Source: an uncultured Ohtaekwangia sp.
Lineage (GTDB): Bacteria; Bacteroidota; Bacteroidia; Cytophagales; Cyclobacteriaceae
Length of the DNA: 64,000 nucleotides
Assembly (NCBI GenBank): GCA_964436055.1
Contig: CAYTBO010000003.1
Location: 537 to 64,536 of the forward strand
Reading direction: 5' to 3'
Shown here: one piece after another, positions 24,590 to 31,661 of the stretch
Layout of the letters: every line of letters begins with the position of its first letter
Position numbering within the stretch: position 1 is the first letter of the stretch
Position numbers and translations under genes: made by a program
Notes under the pieces: generated by a model
Databases searched by the model: none
What the model saw: the letters and a program-made list of their open reading frames with translations, nothing else
Told to the model about the DNA's origin: nothing

Positions 24590-25579
24590 ATGGCGTTCGA
24601 AACGGCAACAGAATTACAGCAAGAGCAAACTCAGAAGATCAAACAGGTATACACTGAAGTGGCCAAGGTGGTAGTAGGTCAGGAATATATGGTCAACCGC
24701 CTGCTGATAGGGCTATTCACCAATGGCCATATTTTATTGGAAGGAGTACCGGGATTGGCAAAAACCCTGACGATAAGCACCCTTGCACGCGTATTGCACC
24801 TTGATTTTGCCCGAATTCAGTTCACCCCTGACCTCTTGCCGGCCGACCTCGTGGGCACAATGATTTATAATCAGAAAGACGGAAAATTTGAAGTGAAGAA
24901 GGGGCCTATTTTTGCCAACATTATTTTGGCAGATGAAATAAACCGTTCCCCTGCAAAAGTTCAGTCCGCCTTACTGGAAGCCATGCAGGAGAAGCAGGTT
25001 ACCATTGGCGAGACATCCTTTCAGTTGGACAGACCCTTTTTGGTGATGGCTACTCAAAATCCCGTAGAAAATGAAGGTACCTATCCTTTGCCGGAAGCGC
25101 AGATCGACCGATTTATGATGAAGGTGTTTGTGAACTATCCAACAAAGGAAGATGAATTGGAAATCATGCGCAGAATATCCAACATGCAGTTTAGTTACGA
25201 GGTAAGTCCGGTGCTCACCAAGGAAGATATTTTTTCTATTCGCAATGAAGTGAACCGGGTAAAAATTTCTGAATCACTGGAGAAATACATCATTGAGTTG
25301 GTCAGCGCTACACGCAATCCTAAAGAATATAAACTTGATCACGAGGCACAATACATTCAGTATGGCGCCTCACCACGTGCCAGCATCAATTTAAATCTGG
25401 CTTCGCGCGCCATGGCTTACCTCGATGGGCGGGATTATGTATTGCCAGAGGATATTAAAGAAGTGGCATTGGATGTGATGAATCACCGGATTATTCTCAA
25501 CTATGAAGCCGAGGCTGATAATGTGCGTACAAGCGATATCATCAAGGTGCTGCTGACGAAAGTGCCGATTACAAAGTAA
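24590..25579 (+). CDS. MoxR family AAA+ ATPase
   Basis: LEGVPGLAKT, RIQFTPDLLPAD, LADEINR, ATQNP.E.EGTYPLPEAQ.DRF and GASPRA motifs. Confidence 0.95.
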   Translation: MAFETATELQQEQTQKIKQVYTEVAKVVVGQEYMVNRLLIGLFTNGHILLEGVPGLAKTLTISTLARVLHLDFARIQFTPDLLPADLVGTMIYNQKDGKFEVKKGPIFANIILADEINRSPAKVQSALLEAMQEKQVTIGETSFQLDRPFLVMATQNPVENEGTYPLPEAQIDRFMMKVFVNYPTKEDELEIMRRISNMQFSYEVSPVLTKEDIFSIRNEVNRVKISESLEKYIIELVSATRNPKEYKLDHEAQYIQYGASPRASINLNLASRAMAYLDGRDYVLPEDIKEVALDVMNHRIILNYEAEADNVRTSDIIKVLLTKVPITK

Positions 25580-25916
25580 TCTTTCTGGTGGATTTTTAGA
25601 TGGGTGGATACAACTTCTTTAGAAGGTAGAATATAAGATTTCAAAAACCAAGGTAGCAATACCTGTTAGAATAAAGCCAATCATATAGTTAAGTTGGTGC
25701 GCCTGATCAATAAACCAACTCAATTAATGAGAAACTGAATACTTTACATTCTTATTACTTCACTAATAGTTTACGTGTTAACCAAATTTTAACATATTTA
25801 AGCCAAAATTATCCCAATGTTATTCCGCTTAATGAACTAACAGCCTCACATTCAATTGACTTATCGCAATATTGCGATTTGAAAATGGTCTCGATAGGAG
25901 ATTTACGGTGGTCTTA

Positions 25917-25982
25917 TCAAGCCTATTTAACAATTACGTAATATAACCTTGCTCAAGAGGTAATATCGCCACTGTAACTTTG
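25917..25982 (+). promoter_or_regulatory. Promoter of the TonB receptor with 11-bp-phased boxes
   Basis: -7 element TAACTTTG at 25975-25982; TCAA 25917, TAAC 25928, TAAT 25939 and TAAT 25961 lie at multiples of 11 bp. Confidence 0.6.
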
Positions 25983-25999
25983 CAGGCAAATTAAGCCTC

Positions 26000-28816
26000 A
26001 TGTCAAAGCGCATTTTCCTTTTGGTTGTTTTAACCTCTCTCACTTTTCTTACTATGGCACAATATGGTAGCATTACCGGGAAGGTAATTGATGCCGGCAA
26101 TAAAGAAGCTGTTATTGGTGCAAATGCGGTAATTCAAGGAACCACTGTAGGGGCTGCTACTGACCTTGATGGCAATTTCACAATCGCCAATCTGAAGCCT
26201 GGAACATACACTGTAGCGGTGTCTTTCGTTACGTATAAAACACATATTATCCCGGATTTAGAAGTTGAGCCTGGCAAAATTGTGTCGGTGGAGATAGAGT
26301 TAAATGAAGACGCCACTGAACTTGAAGAAGTGGTTGTAACCGGAAATAGACAGATAAATACAGACTATAACTTGGTGGCTGCAATAAGAGAAAGCAAGCT
26401 TGTAGTGAGCGGAATTTCGGCACAACAGATTTCGCGTGTACCTGACCGCGATGCAGCTCAGGTTATGCAACGAGTGCCCGGTATCAGTATTGTAGACAAT
26501 CGCTTTGTGATGATTCGCGGTGTGAGTGAGCGGTACAATCAGGTGATGATTAACAACGTGATTGGCCCAAGCACCGAAGTTGACAAACGTTCTTTTTCTT
26601 TTGATTTGATACCTAGCGGAGCCATAGACCAGATTTTAATTTACAAGTCTGGAAGTGCAGATATTCCGGGTGATTTTGCCGGGGGAATTGTTCAGGTGGT
26701 GACCCGTCAATACAATGACGAAAACTATTTTAAGTTCAACACTTCCCTGGGCATGAGAGCCGGAACAACATTTAACGATTTTAGTAAGAGCCAGGGTAGT
26801 GCTACGGATAGACTGGGTTTCGACAACGGCTTCCGCTCCTTACCAGCTTCTTTTCCTTCTACAGCTGCCACGGCTGAATCATCTCGCACATCGGAGCTAC
26901 GGCAAACTGCTGGTCGCTCTTTAAGAAATAACTTTGATTTCAGTACAACCAACGCACCAGTAGATTTCGGTTTTGGATTTGAACTTTCACAAGGCTTCAA
27001 TATAGGTCGCGTTAAGGTAGGCACAATCACCAATGTGGCTTACTCTAACTCCTATCAAAACCGGGAAGTAAAATTTCAGCGCTGGTTGTTTGACTCGCAA
27101 AGCATTGAGGAACGTTTTAACTTCAACGATACCTACTCTGAAAATGATGTGCGGATAAGCGGTCTTTCAAACTGGAGGGCTACCGTAGGAAACTCACGCT
27201 TCGAGTTTAAAAATCTTGTTAATTTATCAGGCGAAGACCAAACTATTTTGCGAGAGGGTCAGGATGTATTTTTGAATACGGATCGCCTTTTCCGCAATTA
27301 TTCTTATCACTACCAGAGTCGTTTAATTTATACTGGGCAATTGCAGGGAACACACAAACTGGCTGATAACTCTCTTATTATTGATTGGGTGGGTGGTTAT
27401 AATTTTGTTAATCGCAACGAACCTGACTTCCGAAGATTCCGAACCTTCCGCCTCATTTCCTCTGGCGAAGAAACCTTTCAGATTCAATTGCCACCCAGTG
27501 CCAATTTATTTGAAACTGGTCGCTTTTACTCTGATCTGCAGGACAAAGGATTTTCGTATGGTGTAAACATCGAAAAGAAATTTGGGGATGTAAACAGCAA
27601 ACGCATACCCTCAATTAAGGCGGGCTATTACGCGGAATCAAAAAACCGCGATTTTAATGCCCGCTATGTTTCATACCTGTATCCAAGTTTTTTTGATCCG
27701 GCAGAAGGGGAGCGTTTAATACGCTTGCCCTTAAGTGATGTGTTTGCACCAGAAAACATTAGAACACAAGATGGGTTTGTAATTGAAGAAGGTACCCGCC
27801 CTTCTGATACCTATACAGGTACAAATTTTCTGACAGCGGGCTATGTTATGGGAACCTTGCCTGCAGGGAAGTTTGATCTCACCGCTGGCCTTCGTCTGGA
27901 AAACAACATTCAAAAACTGAATACAATTGGTGTTGACGGCCCTATAGAAGTCAATAATCCAATATTGTCTGTTTTGCCTTCCCTAAACACGGCTTATAAT
28001 ATAACCGATCGTTCATTATTTCGTCTTGCCTATTCACGCACCGTTAACAGACCAGAGTTTCGCGAGTTAGCACCGTTTTTATATTACGATTTTGAACTTG
28101 AACAAGGTATTCAGGGAAATCCTAATTTGTTGACAGCTACCATTGACAACGTTGACTTGCGCTGGGAAATGTATCCAAATCCGGGCGAAACTATTAGTGT
28201 TGGTGCCTTTTACAAAGCATTCGATGACCCGATCGAATCAATTTTAATCCTTACCACCGAAGCCCCACAATCGACCTATGGAAATGCAGATTTTGCAAAC
28301 TCTTATGGCGTTGAGGTGGAATTCAAAAAATCACTTTCCAGCCTCGGGGTGTCGCGCTTTTTACGAAACACAACCGTAAATATGAATGCATCCTTTATTT
28401 TTTCAGAAGTTGATCTGGGATCGCAGGCTACAGCACAAAAACAGGTACGTCAGTTGCAGGGGCAATCGCCTTATCTAATTAATACAGGGTTGTATTATAC
28501 CGATGATGAAAATCAACTTGCGGTCTCAGCAGCCTATAATGTCTTTGGACCTCGTATTTTTGCCGTTGGTGATGTAAACTTCCCGTCCATTTATGAATTG
28601 CCACGGCACTCCATAGATTTACAAATTTCTAAACAGTTTGGCAAAATTGAAACTAAACTGAATATCCAAAATCTGGTGAATGCCAGGTATCGCTTTTATC
28701 AGGATACTGATGTAGATAATAAAATTGACACCGACGGTGGCCGTGATGTTCCCATTCTGGCATATACAATTGGTCAACAATTTAGCCTAAGCTTAGGTTA
28801 TAAGATTGGTCGCTAA
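26000..28816 (+). CDS. TonB-dependent receptor with N-terminal carboxypeptidase-regulatory-like domain
   Basis: Signal peptide, GSITGKVID..GAATDLDGNF, TonB box LEEVVVTG, plug region FVMIRG..YNQVMIN, C-terminal aromatic strand FSLSLGYKI. Confidence 0.93.
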   Translation: MSKRIFLLVVLTSLTFLTMAQYGSITGKVIDAGNKEAVIGANAVIQGTTVGAATDLDGNFTIANLKPGTYTVAVSFVTYKTHIIPDLEVEPGKIVSVEIELNEDATELEEVVVTGNRQINTDYNLVAAIRESKLVVSGISAQQISRVPDRDAAQVMQRVPGISIVDNRFVMIRGVSERYNQVMINNVIGPSTEVDKRSFSFDLIPSGAIDQILIYKSGSADIPGDFAGGIVQVVTRQYNDENYFKFNTSLGMRAGTTFNDFSKSQGSATDRLGFDNGFRSLPASFPSTAATAESSRTSELRQTAGRSLRNNFDFSTTNAPVDFGFGFELSQGFNIGRVKVGTITNVAYSNSYQNREVKFQRWLFDSQSIEERFNFNDTYSENDVRISGLSNWRATVGNSRFEFKNLVNLSGEDQTILREGQDVFLNTDRLFRNYSYHYQSRLIYTGQLQGTHKLADNSLIIDWVGGYNFVNRNEPDFRRFRTFRLISSGEETFQIQLPPSANLFETGRFYSDLQDKGFSYGVNIEKKFGDVNSKRIPSIKAGYYAESKNRDFNARYVSYLYPSFFDPAEGERLIRLPLSDVFAPENIRTQDGFVIEEGTRPSDTYTGTNFLTAGYVMGTLPAGKFDLTAGLRLENNIQKLNTIGVDGPIEVNNPILSVLPSLNTAYNITDRSLFRLAYSRTVNRPEFRELAPFLYYDFELEQGIQGNPNLLTATIDNVDLRWEMYPNPGETISVGAFYKAFDDPIESILILTTEAPQSTYGNADFANSYGVEVEFKKSLSSLGVSRFLRNTTVNMNASFIFSEVDLGSQATAQKQVRQLQGQSPYLINTGLYYTDDENQLAVSAAYNVFGPRIFAVGDVNFPSIYELPRHSIDLQISKQFGKIETKLNIQNLVNARYRFYQDTDVDNKIDTDGGRDVPILAYTIGQQFSLSLGYKIGR

Positions 28817-28894
28817 GTCAAAACACAAAAAAATATTTGGGGGAAGCACTATCCTGATGACGCTTATTTTTTTGTTAAGAAACCATGAAATCCA

Positions 28895-28960
28895 TAACCT
28901 TCCGGTAACAAATTGATAACTGCCTTGTCATTAACTGGCAGAAAGTACAGTCTAAATTTG
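28895..28960 (+). promoter_or_regulatory. Promoter of the lipoprotein gene with 11-bp direct-repeat array (OmpR/PhoB-like)
   Basis: TAAC at 28895, 28906 and 28917, TGTCAT in register (TCAT at 28928); -7 element TAAATTTG at 28953-28960. Confidence 0.7.
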
Positions 28961-28996: not shown

Positions 28997-31012
28997 ATGA
29001 AAAAAACGCTTTCACTTTTGGCCTTCTTCGTGGCTGTAGCAGCTATGGTAGTAATGCAAAGTTGCAAGGATGACGATGACCCTGTTATTCTTCCACCCAC
29101 ATTAACGGCACCAGCCAGTGTTGCATTCGTACAGATTGGCGGAGAAGCAGATGTTACATTCGCCTTCACAGCTCCCGGAGGGTTTGCTGCTGCAACGGTA
29201 GCAGCAACCGGAGGTTCCGCTACGGTGAAGACAGCACCTACAGTTGGAGCTACAGAAGGCTCAGTTGTAGTTGAATACACTGCAGATAATACCGCAGGTG
29301 CAGGAACGGTAGTTCTAACGTTAAGTGACAGTGAAGGGCAATCAACAAGCCAGACTGCTGCGATAAATAAGACGATCAGCGCACCTCCTTCATTGACCTT
29401 AAGTCTTACTACTGCTGAAGCAGCTCAGGGTTCAAGTGTAGAAGTTTCAGTGGTTGTTACTGCTGCCAATGGTGTTAAAACATTAACAGTTACTGGAGCA
29501 ACTTCAACGCCTGCTAGCCCCATTACTTTAACAGGTGCTTCACCGCTAACTCAAACCGTTTCTATTGTAGTTCCTGCAACCGCAGTAGTGGGTTCTACAA
29601 TCACCGCTGTATTTACAACTACTGATGAGCAGGATTTAGTTTCTTCACCCGTTGCATTAGAAATTACAGTGTTGGATGCTACTATCATATTAAGCGGTGA
29701 TCTAACAACGCAGACGCTTGATGCTGCTCAGAGATACCTCATCCGTGGACAAACCTTTGTTCCAGACGGTGTAACGATCACGATTCCTGCAGGCACAGTT
29801 CTTTTTGGTGAAAAAGCTACGAAAGGTACGCTTGTTGTAGAACGCGGTGGCAAAATCTTGGCCAATGGCACAGTCGAAGCTCCTGTGGTAATGACTTCCA
29901 ATCAGGCAGTAAATGCACGCGACAGAGGTGACTGGGGTGGTTTGGTTATCTTAGGAAAAGCCTTTACGAATCAGCCTAACCCTGCTATCGAAGGAATTTC
30001 TCCGGCTGTGAATTTTGGTGCAGCCGATCGTGCCAACGACACAGATAATTCTGGCGTGTACAAGTATCTGCGCGTAGAATATGCCGGTATTGAACTTACC
30101 CCCAACAACGAAACTAATGGTATAACTATGGGTGGAGTTGGTAACGGAACAGTTATGGAATATATGCAGGTTTCGTTTGGTGGTGATGATAGTTTCGAAT
30201 GGTTTGGTGGTTCAGTGAATGGTAGATATTTGATAGCCCTCTCAACATGGGATGATGATTTTGATTGCGATTTCGGATGGAGTGGTAATATTCAGTTCGG
30301 CCTTGCAGTACGCAACCCATTTGCAGCAGATCAATCGCAATCAAACGCGTTTGAAAATGACAATGGACCTAATGACAACGATACCGGAGCAGGCACTTAC
30401 ACAACCGGAACTTTCTCTAACATTACAGTGTACGGTCCTATTGATAGAACAGGTCGTTCAATTTCTGCCAACAATGTACACTCAATGGATTTGAGAAGAA
30501 GAAATGCTACATCAATTTTCAACTCAGTTATTGGTGGTTTCCCTACAGGTCTAAGAATGAACCAAAACTCAGTTTATGCGCAGTATACCAGCGGTACGCC
30601 TAATGGAGTTTTGGCCAATAATATCCTGATTGCTCCAGTTGCTACGAGCTTTGCAATTGGTAGTGGCGTTAGCTTTACAGCTACTGATCTGCAGACGTAT
30701 TGGAATGCAGCCAATAGCACATTGACAATTCCAGCAGCAGCCGATGAGGCAACGTTTTATACGAATCTGGGTCTGAGAATCGATAACTTCTTCGCTCGTT
30801 CGACTACCAGCACGTATCCATCGGACCCTGACTTTACACTTACAAGTGGCACGCCAACACTTTCCACAGGTGCAAGTTTTGCCAATGCTAAGTTTGATGA
30901 GCCAGGCAGATCCGGATTTTTTAACGAAACTGTTACCTACCGCGGTGCTTTCGGCACTACTGATTGGACTAACGGTTGGTCAGAATTCCGCCCGATTGAA
31001 AAAGTTTATTAA
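28997..31012 (+). CDS. Surface lipoprotein with Ig-like repeats and a probable beta-helix domain
   Basis: Lipobox MQSC followed by KDDDD; Thr/Ala-rich repeats; GDWGGLVILG, YLRVEYAG, DDSFEWFGG, DDDFD.DFGW, YRGAFG..DW..GW motifs. Confidence 0.85.
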   Translation: MKKTLSLLAFFVAVAAMVVMQSCKDDDDPVILPPTLTAPASVAFVQIGGEADVTFAFTAPGGFAAATVAATGGSATVKTAPTVGATEGSVVVEYTADNTAGAGTVVLTLSDSEGQSTSQTAAINKTISAPPSLTLSLTTAEAAQGSSVEVSVVVTAANGVKTLTVTGATSTPASPITLTGASPLTQTVSIVVPATAVVGSTITAVFTTTDEQDLVSSPVALEITVLDATIILSGDLTTQTLDAAQRYLIRGQTFVPDGVTITIPAGTVLFGEKATKGTLVVERGGKILANGTVEAPVVMTSNQAVNARDRGDWGGLVILGKAFTNQPNPAIEGISPAVNFGAADRANDTDNSGVYKYLRVEYAGIELTPNNETNGITMGGVGNGTVMEYMQVSFGGDDSFEWFGGSVNGRYLIALSTWDDDFDCDFGWSGNIQFGLAVRNPFAADQSQSNAFENDNGPNDNDTGAGTYTTGTFSNITVYGPIDRTGRSISANNVHSMDLRRRNATSIFNSVIGGFPTGLRMNQNSVYAQYTSGTPNGVLANNILIAPVATSFAIGSGVSFTATDLQTYWNAANSTLTIPAAADEATFYTNLGLRIDNFFARSTTSTYPSDPDFTLTSGTPTLSTGASFANAKFDEPGRSGFFNETVTYRGAFGTTDWTNGWSEFRPIEKVY

Positions 31013-31031: not shown

Positions 31032-31065
31032 AGAAAGACCTGCTGAAAGCAGGTCTTTCTTTTTT
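31032..31065 (+). terminator. Rho-independent terminator
   Basis: AGAAAGACCTGCT-GAA-AGCAGGTCTTTCT perfect 13-bp stem plus T run, 19 nt after the lipoprotein stop. Confidence 0.9.
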
Positions 31066-31076
31066 AATTTTGCTCC

Positions 31077-31661
31077 ATGAAATTGAAACACATCATTCTC
31101 CTCACTATTATTCTTGCGGCATGCGAAACTAAAGTATCTTACATTCCTGAAGAACAATTGACCCCTCAACGCCAGGATGTAGTGATGTCTAAAATAATCC
31201 GGTATGTGGGCAGAAAACCTGATAAAGCTACTGACTCAACTAAATTTTTATCAAAACACGATGAGCATTACCTGGCGCAGATGGCTAAACACAAACTGAA
31301 TCTGTATTTTGTAAACGATGAAAAAGATCATTTCTTTTTAATCAGCCGCATCGCTCCGAGTATACACGTAAAGCATGTAGCTACAGGAGGTAGATTTAAA
31401 ATGAGCGAGATGGATAGCCTGGTTGAGTATGAAGAAATTTTCCGCACCTGGAAAATGCCCTATGATACATTGATGAATCGAGCAGGCCTTTTGTTCGATA
31501 AAATGGTGAAAGGCGAATCGTTGGAATCTTACTTCACTAAAAACTCAGGTGGCGTTGAGTACATTGAGTTTCCGGATGATAATGTATACTACGATAAGCA
31601 GGCCCGTAAATGGAAATCAAAACAGTTTAGATCAGTGGAGGAAATGGTTGGTGTTGAATAA
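31077..31661 (+). CDS. Hypothetical lipoprotein
   Basis: Lipobox LAAC; 194-aa ORF with no recognised family. Confidence 0.7.
   Translation: MKLKHIILLTIILAACETKVSYIPEEQLTPQRQDVVMSKIIRYVGRKPDKATDSTKFLSKHDEHYLAQMAKHKLNLYFVNDEKDHFFLISRIAPSIHVKHVATGGRFKMSEMDSLVEYEEIFRTWKMPYDTLMNRAGLLFDKMVKGESLESYFTKNSGGVEYIEFPDDNVYYDKQARKWKSKQFRSVEEMVGVE

Follow-up and report, generated by a model that had tools for sequence, protein, structure and literature searches.

The window analysed here is a stretch of 64,000 nucleotides (nt) from an uncultured Ohtaekwangia sp. (contig CAYTBO010000003.1 of assembly GCA_964436055.1), whose genome is a 3.5-Mb draft of 42% G+C from a Cyclobacteriaceae-like member of the Cytophagales. 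It carries a module of three genes on the plus strand, encoding a TonB-dependent receptor of 938 amino acids (aa) (26000..28816), a predicted surface lipoprotein of 671 aa (28997..31012) and a small lipoprotein-like protein of 194 aa (31077..31661). The subject of the present study is a set of boxes with the core word TAAC, repeated every 11 nt in the promoters of the receptor and the lipoprotein genes. The receptor gene is preceded by a 420-nt intergenic region following a MoxR ATPase gene, and the lipoprotein gene by 180 nt of intergenic DNA. Contigs, genomes and loci are referred to below by numbers prefixed C, G and L, respectively.

The receptor contains the Pfam domains CarbopepD_reg_2 and Plug and has TIGR01782 as its best NCBIfam model; with its orthologue in the Flavobacteriales cluster L030 it shares 48% identity along the entire length. 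Its assignment as SusC was rejected, as the match to TIGR04056 is confined to 140 N-terminal residues (69 bits, cut-off 368), and so was a SusC/SusD polysaccharide utilisation pair, the partner of the receptor being a beta-helix lipoprotein and not SusD. The lipoprotein has a lipobox ending in VMQSC followed by KDDDD, presumably a Bacteroidota surface-export signal, then a Thr/Ala-rich N-terminal region and a conserved beta-helix domain of ~440 aa; no Pfam or NCBIfam family matches any part of its 671 residues. In an AlphaFold2 model the conserved C-terminal 447 residues form a right-handed beta-helix (predicted local distance difference test score, pLDDT, 92.4). The top Foldseek matches of the model are parallel beta-helix proteins throughout (tailspikes, pectate and alginate lyases, GH87), and since all of them are weak (best E 5e-3), no enzymatic activity can be assigned. 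A search with the lipoprotein sequence against PDB returned spurious Ig-like matches only. The 194-aa protein, for which no match to Pfam or other families was found, was recognised as the third conserved member of the module by comparison with L030, in which an orthologous gene for a protein of ~210 aa, 41% identical to it (E 3e-42), lies between the genes of the beta-helix lipoprotein and a PhoB-like regulator.

Box arrays in the two promoters

Box distances are given here as nt upstream from the first T of the -7 element TAnnTTTG. Such elements were picked by pattern, and gene calls are crude open reading frame calls. The -7 element of the receptor gene, TAACTTTG, occupies 25975..25982 on the plus strand, 25 nt before the ATG at 26000, and relatives carry GACCTTTG or TACTTTTG in its place; that of the lipoprotein gene, TAAATTTG, occupies 28953..28960 on the same strand, 44 nt before the ATG at 28997, and is replaced in relatives by TAATTTTG or TAATCTTG.

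The lipoprotein array (28894..28931, plus strand) consists of the units ATAACC, GTAACA and GATAAC, which place TAAC at 58 (28895), 47 (28906) and 36 (28917), and of a degenerate fourth unit with TCAT at 25 (28928). The receptor array (25926..25966, plus strand) has four 11-bp units, namely TTTAACA (47), GTAATA (36), a degenerate unit (25) and GGTAATAT (14), with TAAC at 47 (25928), TAAT at 36 (25939) and TAAT at 14 (25961). Exact in-register TAAC is thus limited to a single copy in this array; its second unit is a drifted one, TAAT, a word common at 36 in other promoters, and the TAAT at 14 belongs to the conserved GGTAATAT unit. The word TCAA is found at 58 (25917) and is not conserved in close relatives.

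These arrays had been proposed in an initial annotation of the window, and all of its coordinates and box distances proved correct when the sequence was rechecked. It had also remarked that neither promoter has TTTG at the normal spacing upstream of the -7 element. This is true and yet uninformative, as only 12% of the TAnnTTTG promoters in the genome have TTTG at a spacer of 18-22 nt. A link that it had drawn between the TGTCAT of the lipoprotein promoter and the half-site of the Escherichia coli Pho box is coincidental, the word being 2 nt out of phase and replaced by TGTCGC in L004 and by TGTAAT in L005.

Conservation and rarity of the boxes

Relatives of the lipoprotein were identified at 53 loci (33-88% identity; one genome per species searched) spanning the Cytophagales, Flavobacteriales, Chitinophagales, Saprospirales, Balneolales and unclassified Bacteroidia. 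They lie nearly always just 3' of an orthologous receptor gene, and where the lipoprotein gene in these loci has its own promoter, that promoter carries the boxes. The lipoprotein array is identical in L004 and L005, while in L006-L011 TAAA at 36 is flanked by TAAC at 47 and at 25, L050-L053 and L040 have TAAC triples at 47/36/25 or 36/25/14, and L027, L037 and L056 have TAAC pairs. The receptor array can likewise be aligned with CTTTAACAATTCCGTAACATACCC..GGGGTAATATTG of L004, with the arrays of L005, L007 and L011 and with the four tandem TAAC words of L050-L053; the receptor promoters of L004, L005, L007 and L011 share the order CTTTAACAATTnnGTAACA, ~17 nt, GGTAATATTG and the -7 box.

The shared register relative to the -7 element, claimed initially from the two promoters of the window, was examined in 58 promoters of orthologous receptor and lipoprotein genes; their genomes are from Cytophagales, are Flavobacteriales-like or Chitinophagales-like, or belong to unclassified Bacteroidia. 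The promoters were anchored on the -7 element, TAAC words within 8-73 nt of it were counted and the window was left out. Exactly at 14, 25, 36, 47 or 58 were 83 of the 101 TAAC words, against 9.2 expected (binomial 2.5e-68, shared ancestry being ignored), and the reversed word has no such register in the same 58 promoters. The flanks between the boxes cannot be aligned between distant groups; what is conserved is therefore the boxes and their register and not the whole region.

The arrays are also rare. The triple TAAC-N7-TAAC-N7-TAAC occurs twice on both strands of the 3.5-Mb genome, against ~0.16 expected from the frequency of TAAC, and one of the two exact triples is the lipoprotein array. 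Within 358 kb of upstream regions, TAAC pairs at a spacing of 11 nt number 24 in the orientation of the gene and 18 in the inverse orientation, against ~8 expected, and those at every other spacing from 4 to 28 number 4-14; half of the TAAC pairs of the genome fall within the non-coding 11% of it. A pattern arising by chance in AT-rich promoter DNA might be suspected from the receptor promoter, which has a single exact in-register TAAC among words as common as TAAT and TCAA. The rarity of the arrays, their specificity of spacing and orientation and the conservation of their register across very divergent sequences effectively refute it.

A 22-nt weight matrix derived de novo and iterated on intergenic DNA drifted to generic AT-rich matches and was not used; regulon calls were made from the -7-anchored register count instead. 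A scan for E. coli-type promoters gave fewer matches than shuffled sequences and is inapplicable to Bacteroidota promoters.

The array at phosphate-starvation genes

The initial annotation had suggested that the motif be sought upstream of phosphate genes. In a survey of pstS, 80 Bacteroidota loci were collected, of which 78 gave usable upstream regions of 300 nt. An oriented TAAC-N7-TAAC pair precedes pstS in 14 of these 78, as compared with 0-5 for the other spacings from 7 to 17, none for the reversed word and one for the reverse complement. Among the promoters with a callable -7 element, the 14+11k register holds 11 of 35 TAAC words, against 3.2 expected (P 2e-4).

When the genome was scanned, only three promoters were found to have at least two exact TAAC words in register. 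They belong to the lipoprotein gene of the window, to a DUF1573 gene with a two-component operon running divergently from it and to C42:19413-20267, which encodes a Metallophos_2 (PF12850) phosphoesterase and is followed by a glycosyltransferase gene. The domains and layout of the C42 operon are those of PlcP-Agt, a lipid-remodelling pair of phosphate starvation (PMC4796936), and PlcP (pf12850) of Flavobacterium johnsoniae is strongly upregulated on depletion of inorganic phosphate (Pi) (PMC8115612). An oriented 11-nt pair precedes PlcP-like genes at 36 of 79 orthologous loci, against at most one at any other spacing, and 67 of 116 TAAC words in these promoters are in register (P 3e-39). Their layout is that of the receptor promoter, with TAAC at 47, TAAC or TAAT at 36 and TAAT at 14. 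Two independent classes of phosphate-starvation genes thus show enrichment of the motif, in each case at a fixed orientation and register.

The five related genomes that bear the arrays were also examined for the Pst transporter. Only G005 has pstB, and its pstS promoter carries four in-phase units, TAAA/TAAC/TAAC/TTAC. No pstB was found at E <= 1e-80 in G001-G004 (the genomes of L050, L051, L005 and L007, two of them complete chromosomes). Any phosphate sensing in these four of the five relatives would therefore proceed without Pst.

Candidate regulators

Only two full-length regulators of the OmpR family are encoded in the genome, each with a kinase. The regulator at C4:80794-81483, with its kinase gene directly downstream (system C4:80794-82578), lies on a contig other than the window's and is matched best by PhoB models; the best-scoring families of the pair are PhoB and PhoR, at scores below their cut-offs, and it is therefore named PhoB-like. 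Its recognition helix is RTVDVHIRKVREK. The regulator at C16:14243-14923, preceded by its kinase gene (C16:12981-14246), is matched best by an RprY model (NF051850, 265 bits with the cut-off at 370).

Each of the five related genomes examined has an orthologue of the PhoB-like regulator. The module adjoins such a regulator in 6 of the 53 loci, all from Flavobacteriales/Cryomorphaceae, the regulator being 53-56% identical to that of C4. In these six (L012, L013, L015, L030, L032 and L035) the genes for the receptor, the beta-helix lipoprotein, the small lipoprotein, the PhoB-like regulator and the kinase follow one another on one strand, and in L030 the kinase gene adjoins one for a PF04101 glycosyltransferase like Fjoh_0541. 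The complete chromosome G001 has no RprY-type regulator and has retained TAAC arrays, of four and of three boxes.

A conserved GTTAA-N6-GTTAA repeat was observed before both two-component operons (C4:80700-80730 and C16:12900-12945; L074-L078 and L160-L163). In G000 and G002-G005 it lies before the RprY-type operons, and a similar repeat in inverse orientation precedes the PhoB-like genes in G000-G004. The inverse repeats suggest autoregulation or cross-regulation with a different geometry. Both paralogues may recognise nearly the same word, and it is possible that one regulator acts at all the sites or that there is cross-talk. The orientation of the array may separate activation from autoregulation or repression, for which the promoters repressed by PhoP in Bacillus subtilis provide a precedent.

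Proposed function of the arrays and alternatives

The TTAAC array is very probably the Pho box of the Bacteroidota, and the arrays of the window are probably sites at which a PhoB-like regulator activates both promoters under phosphate starvation, as judged from their sequence and genomic associations. The receptor and lipoprotein promoters would be activator-dependent Bacteroidota promoters, in which three or four head-to-tail 11-bp units with the core (T)TAAC(A), extending from ~14 to ~62 nt upstream of the -7 element, would cover the place of the -33 element. If transcription starts a few nt after TAnnTTTG, the TTAACA hexamers would lie at approximately -27, -38, -49, -60 and -71. Phosphorylated under phosphate starvation, the C4 regulator, which is the likely binder of the array, would bind it as dimers, and at least two dimers, in a head-to-tail row along the same side of the helix, would extend over the -33 position, contact RNA polymerase and recruit it, as in class II activation by PhoB and PhoP. 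A surface uptake module comprising the TonB-dependent receptor, the exposed beta-helix lipoprotein and the small lipoprotein would thereby be switched on, together with the PlcP-like/glycosyltransferase lipid-remodelling operon and, where present, pstSCAB. We infer that the PhoB-like regulator occupies the arrays and activates, where transcription starts and that phosphate is the signal in this organism; the idea that an activator array of PhoB type stands in for the upstream promoter element, put forward in the initial annotation, gains support from the register, from the enrichment at the pstS (14/78) and PlcP-like (36/79) loci and from the clustering of the module with PhoB-like genes.

Several observations weigh against this assignment to a phosphate regulator. 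The register statistics ignore phylogeny. No clean array was seen, by eye or by pattern, in the promoter of the organism's own pstS (pstSCAB on contig C73), and G001-G004 keep both TAAC arrays and a PhoB-like two-component system in genomes without pstB. The C4 regulator scores 231 bits with TIGR02154 (cut-off 296) and 224 with NF053854 (cut-off 270), and its kinase 254 bits with TIGR02966 (cut-off 334) and 146 with NF053855 (cut-off 500); at 362 aa the kinase is far shorter than the Bacteroides PhoR model. The repeats at both two-component operons face opposite to the arrays of the target promoters. Lastly, the sole direct data on binding to TTTAACA in the Bacteroidota, those on 'PhoP' of Riemerella anatipestifer (PMC9603813), appear to concern the RprY-like paralogue.

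In an alternative, an RprY-like regulator would bind the arrays, alone or with the PhoB-like one, and the regulon would follow its signal (envelope, redox or sodium stress, as in Porphyromonas and Riemerella) and not strictly phosphate. In DAP-seq (sequencing after DNA affinity purification) of Riemerella 'PhoP', TTTAACA was the most conserved word, and electrophoretic mobility shift assays (EMSA) were reported on the moxR, TonB-receptor and own promoters (PMC9603813); the EMSA probes contain tandem TTAACA. The protein termini of that system (MSNRILLVEDDQSSG.., ..GFRLLVKN; kinase VRNKFIPIISI) resemble C16 and not C4, an assignment inferred from ~25 residues translated from primers in the supplement. 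In addition, a top-scoring TTAACAAGTCGTTAACA site adjoins the C16 operon, where GTTAA-N6-GTTAA is conserved in G002-G005. The Riemerella system is itself reported to be induced under phosphate starvation (PMC9603813). Against an RprY-like binder stand the retention of the arrays in G001 in the absence of an RprY-type regulator, the clustering of the module with the PhoB-like system and never with the RprY-like one, the enrichment at pstS and PlcP-like genes, which fits a Pho regulator, and the opposite direction of the repeats at RprY-type operons. The RprY-like protein is an unlikely binder of the arrays, and a regulon that follows its signal is unlikely to the same degree. More improbable still is a conserved activator site for a different regulator or signal, for instance a substrate-specific regulator or one of general nutrient stress, with the overlap with phosphate genes reflecting partial co-regulation. 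Good matches to TTAACA-N5-TTAACA do precede genes without an obvious phosphate link, namely those for a transketolase subunit (C21), a gamma-glutamyltranspeptidase (C63), a LOG-family protein (window ~33700) and an aldehyde dehydrogenase (C7), and a unique palindrome (25862-25877, described below) suggests that a further regulator acts at the receptor promoter; these sites before genes are mostly out of register with a -7 element, however, and the in-register set of the genome comprises the lipoprotein gene, the PlcP-like operon and the DUF1573 gene. To our knowledge, only OmpR-family proteins use 11-bp head-to-tail repeats in this manner, and this genome has two full-length members only.

A wider proposition may also be true, and is offered tentatively: that the array is a phylum-wide Pho box whose most conserved targets are the receptor/beta-helix lipoprotein and PlcP/glycosyltransferase genes and not pstSCAB, that phosphate is sensed without Pst, and that the receptor and lipoprotein are the primary phosphorus-capture device of the phylum.

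Comparison with known systems

The PhoP box of B. subtilis is TT(A/T/C)ACA repeated every 11 nt. The Pho box of cyanobacterial SphR is PyTTAAPyPy(T/A), also repeated every 11 nt (PMC4195498). The Bacteroidota arrays resemble both in having two to four 11-bp head-to-tail repeats with a TTAAC(A) core, placed on the coding strand immediately upstream of core promoters in phosphate-starvation genes, and the C4 regulator shares with PhoP and SphR a recognition helix of the RTVDVHI type. They differ in being anchored on the -7 element TAnnTTTG in a rigid register of 14 + 11k, and in a predicted regulon with the TonB receptor and the beta-helix lipoprotein at its core, many of the genomes with arrays having no Pst transporter. 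With the E. coli Pho box (CTGTCAT-N4-CTGTCAT), at which a dimer of an OmpR-family protein activates, they share 11-bp direct repeats in place of the upstream hexamer, whereas the half-site is TTAACA and not TGTCA. The Riemerella 'PhoP' motif, TTTAACA, comes from the same phylum and has the same core word, with tandem copies in the EMSA probes, and its targets include TonB receptors and its own operon. In that paper the motif is likened to that of ArcA and tied to aerotolerance and virulence, with no description of phasing, of a -7 register or of a link to pst or plcP (PMC9603813).

In the phoBR cluster of F. johnsoniae (Fjoh_0543-0546), genes for PhoR, PhoB, a TonB transporter and the lipoprotein FII lie together, and Fjoh_0545 and FII (Fjoh_0546), a pectin-lyase-fold protein without Pfam match, increase by 8-10 log2 units on Pi depletion; the Flavobacterium proteins FI, FII and FIII are described as having 'weak homology with pectate lyases' (PMC8115612). 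The Pi-starvation lipoprotein ElpS of Caulobacter co-occurs with a TonB receptor (ElpS/CC0171; PMC2996285). By description, these systems, like the module of the window, place a receptor with CarbopepD_reg_2 and Plug domains beside a pectin-lyase-like lipoprotein without a Pfam family; the window lipoprotein shares with ElpS and FII the lipobox, the beta-helix model, the lack of a Pfam match and a receptor gene directly upstream. The six Flavobacteriales loci described above resemble the F. johnsoniae cluster, whereas the regulator of the window genome is on another contig. Neither of the two papers (PMC8115612, PMC2996285) describes a cis element, and in the work on Bacteroides fragilis PhoB a 512-bp fragment was all that was taken for EMSA. 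The literature search did not turn up a definition of a Pho box for the Bacteroidota. The kind of element is thus known from the PhoP/SphR core, while the Bacteroidota version and its rigid -7 register were not found described in the literature searched.

Although unsurprising in principle, the element is useful and sharply defined. Bacteroidota are dominant in soils, rhizospheres, oceans and guts, and their phosphorus acquisition is known mainly from omics of a few Flavobacterium strains; a box in strict register could provide a readout of the phosphate-starvation regulon from the DNA of genomes or metagenome bins alone, and it points to the receptor/beta-helix lipoprotein/small lipoprotein module as a core target. 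It raises the question of how PhoB-like kinases sense phosphate in the many Pst-less genomes, and it offers a natural test case of an OmpR-family activator working with the unusual sigma factor and the -33/-7 promoters of the Bacteroidota.

Accompanying features of the locus and further sites

A distal TTAAC-N6-TTAAC pair (25778..25793, plus strand) lies 185-196 nt upstream of the -7 box of the receptor gene. It is among only 17 such pairs in the genome, and distal TAAC pairs are found at similar distances in L004 (178/167) and L007 (138/127 and 181/169). No -7 box follows it in register, so that it does not form a separate promoter array; an auxiliary role as a regulator site is possible.

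Between the distal and the proximal arrays, in the receptor leader, lies a perfect palindrome of 16 bp, ATCGCAATATTGCGAT (25862..25877), which is unique in the genome. It is kept in relatives with symmetric changes, as ATCGTAATATTACGAT in L004 and L005 (two copies in L004) and as ATCGTAATATTGCGAT in L006, a pattern that suggests a candidate operator of a second, dedicated dimeric regulator or an RNA hairpin. A search of the intergenic regions against Rfam for a riboswitch or small RNA in the long receptor leader gave no match.

A hairpin resembling an intrinsic terminator, with a 13-bp stem followed by a T-run (31032..31060, plus strand), follows the lipoprotein gene. It ends 16 nt 5' of the ATG of the gene for the 194-aa protein (window 31032-31076), so that there is no room for a promoter before that gene.

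The second exact TAAC triple of the genome is at C7:22292-22345 on the minus strand, between the aldehyde dehydrogenase gene and a divergent gene for a secreted protein of 262 aa, with a TTAAC-N6-TTAAC pair 20 nt further on. Counted by hand, its boxes are 17, 28, 48, 59 and 70 nt from the nearest -7-like word and thus out of the 14+11k register. Exact TAAC triples at L060, L063 and L071 (G002 and G005) precede genes whose secreted products bear C-terminal domains of type IX secretion (Por_Secre_tail, CHU_C) and which are possibly further members of the regulon.

The gene for the MoxR AAA ATPase (window 24590-25579) lies directly 5' of the receptor gene not only in the window but also in L006, L009 and L040, all from Cytophagales. 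The regulator that binds TTTAACA in Riemerella has moxR and the Bat operon under its direct control (PMC9603813).

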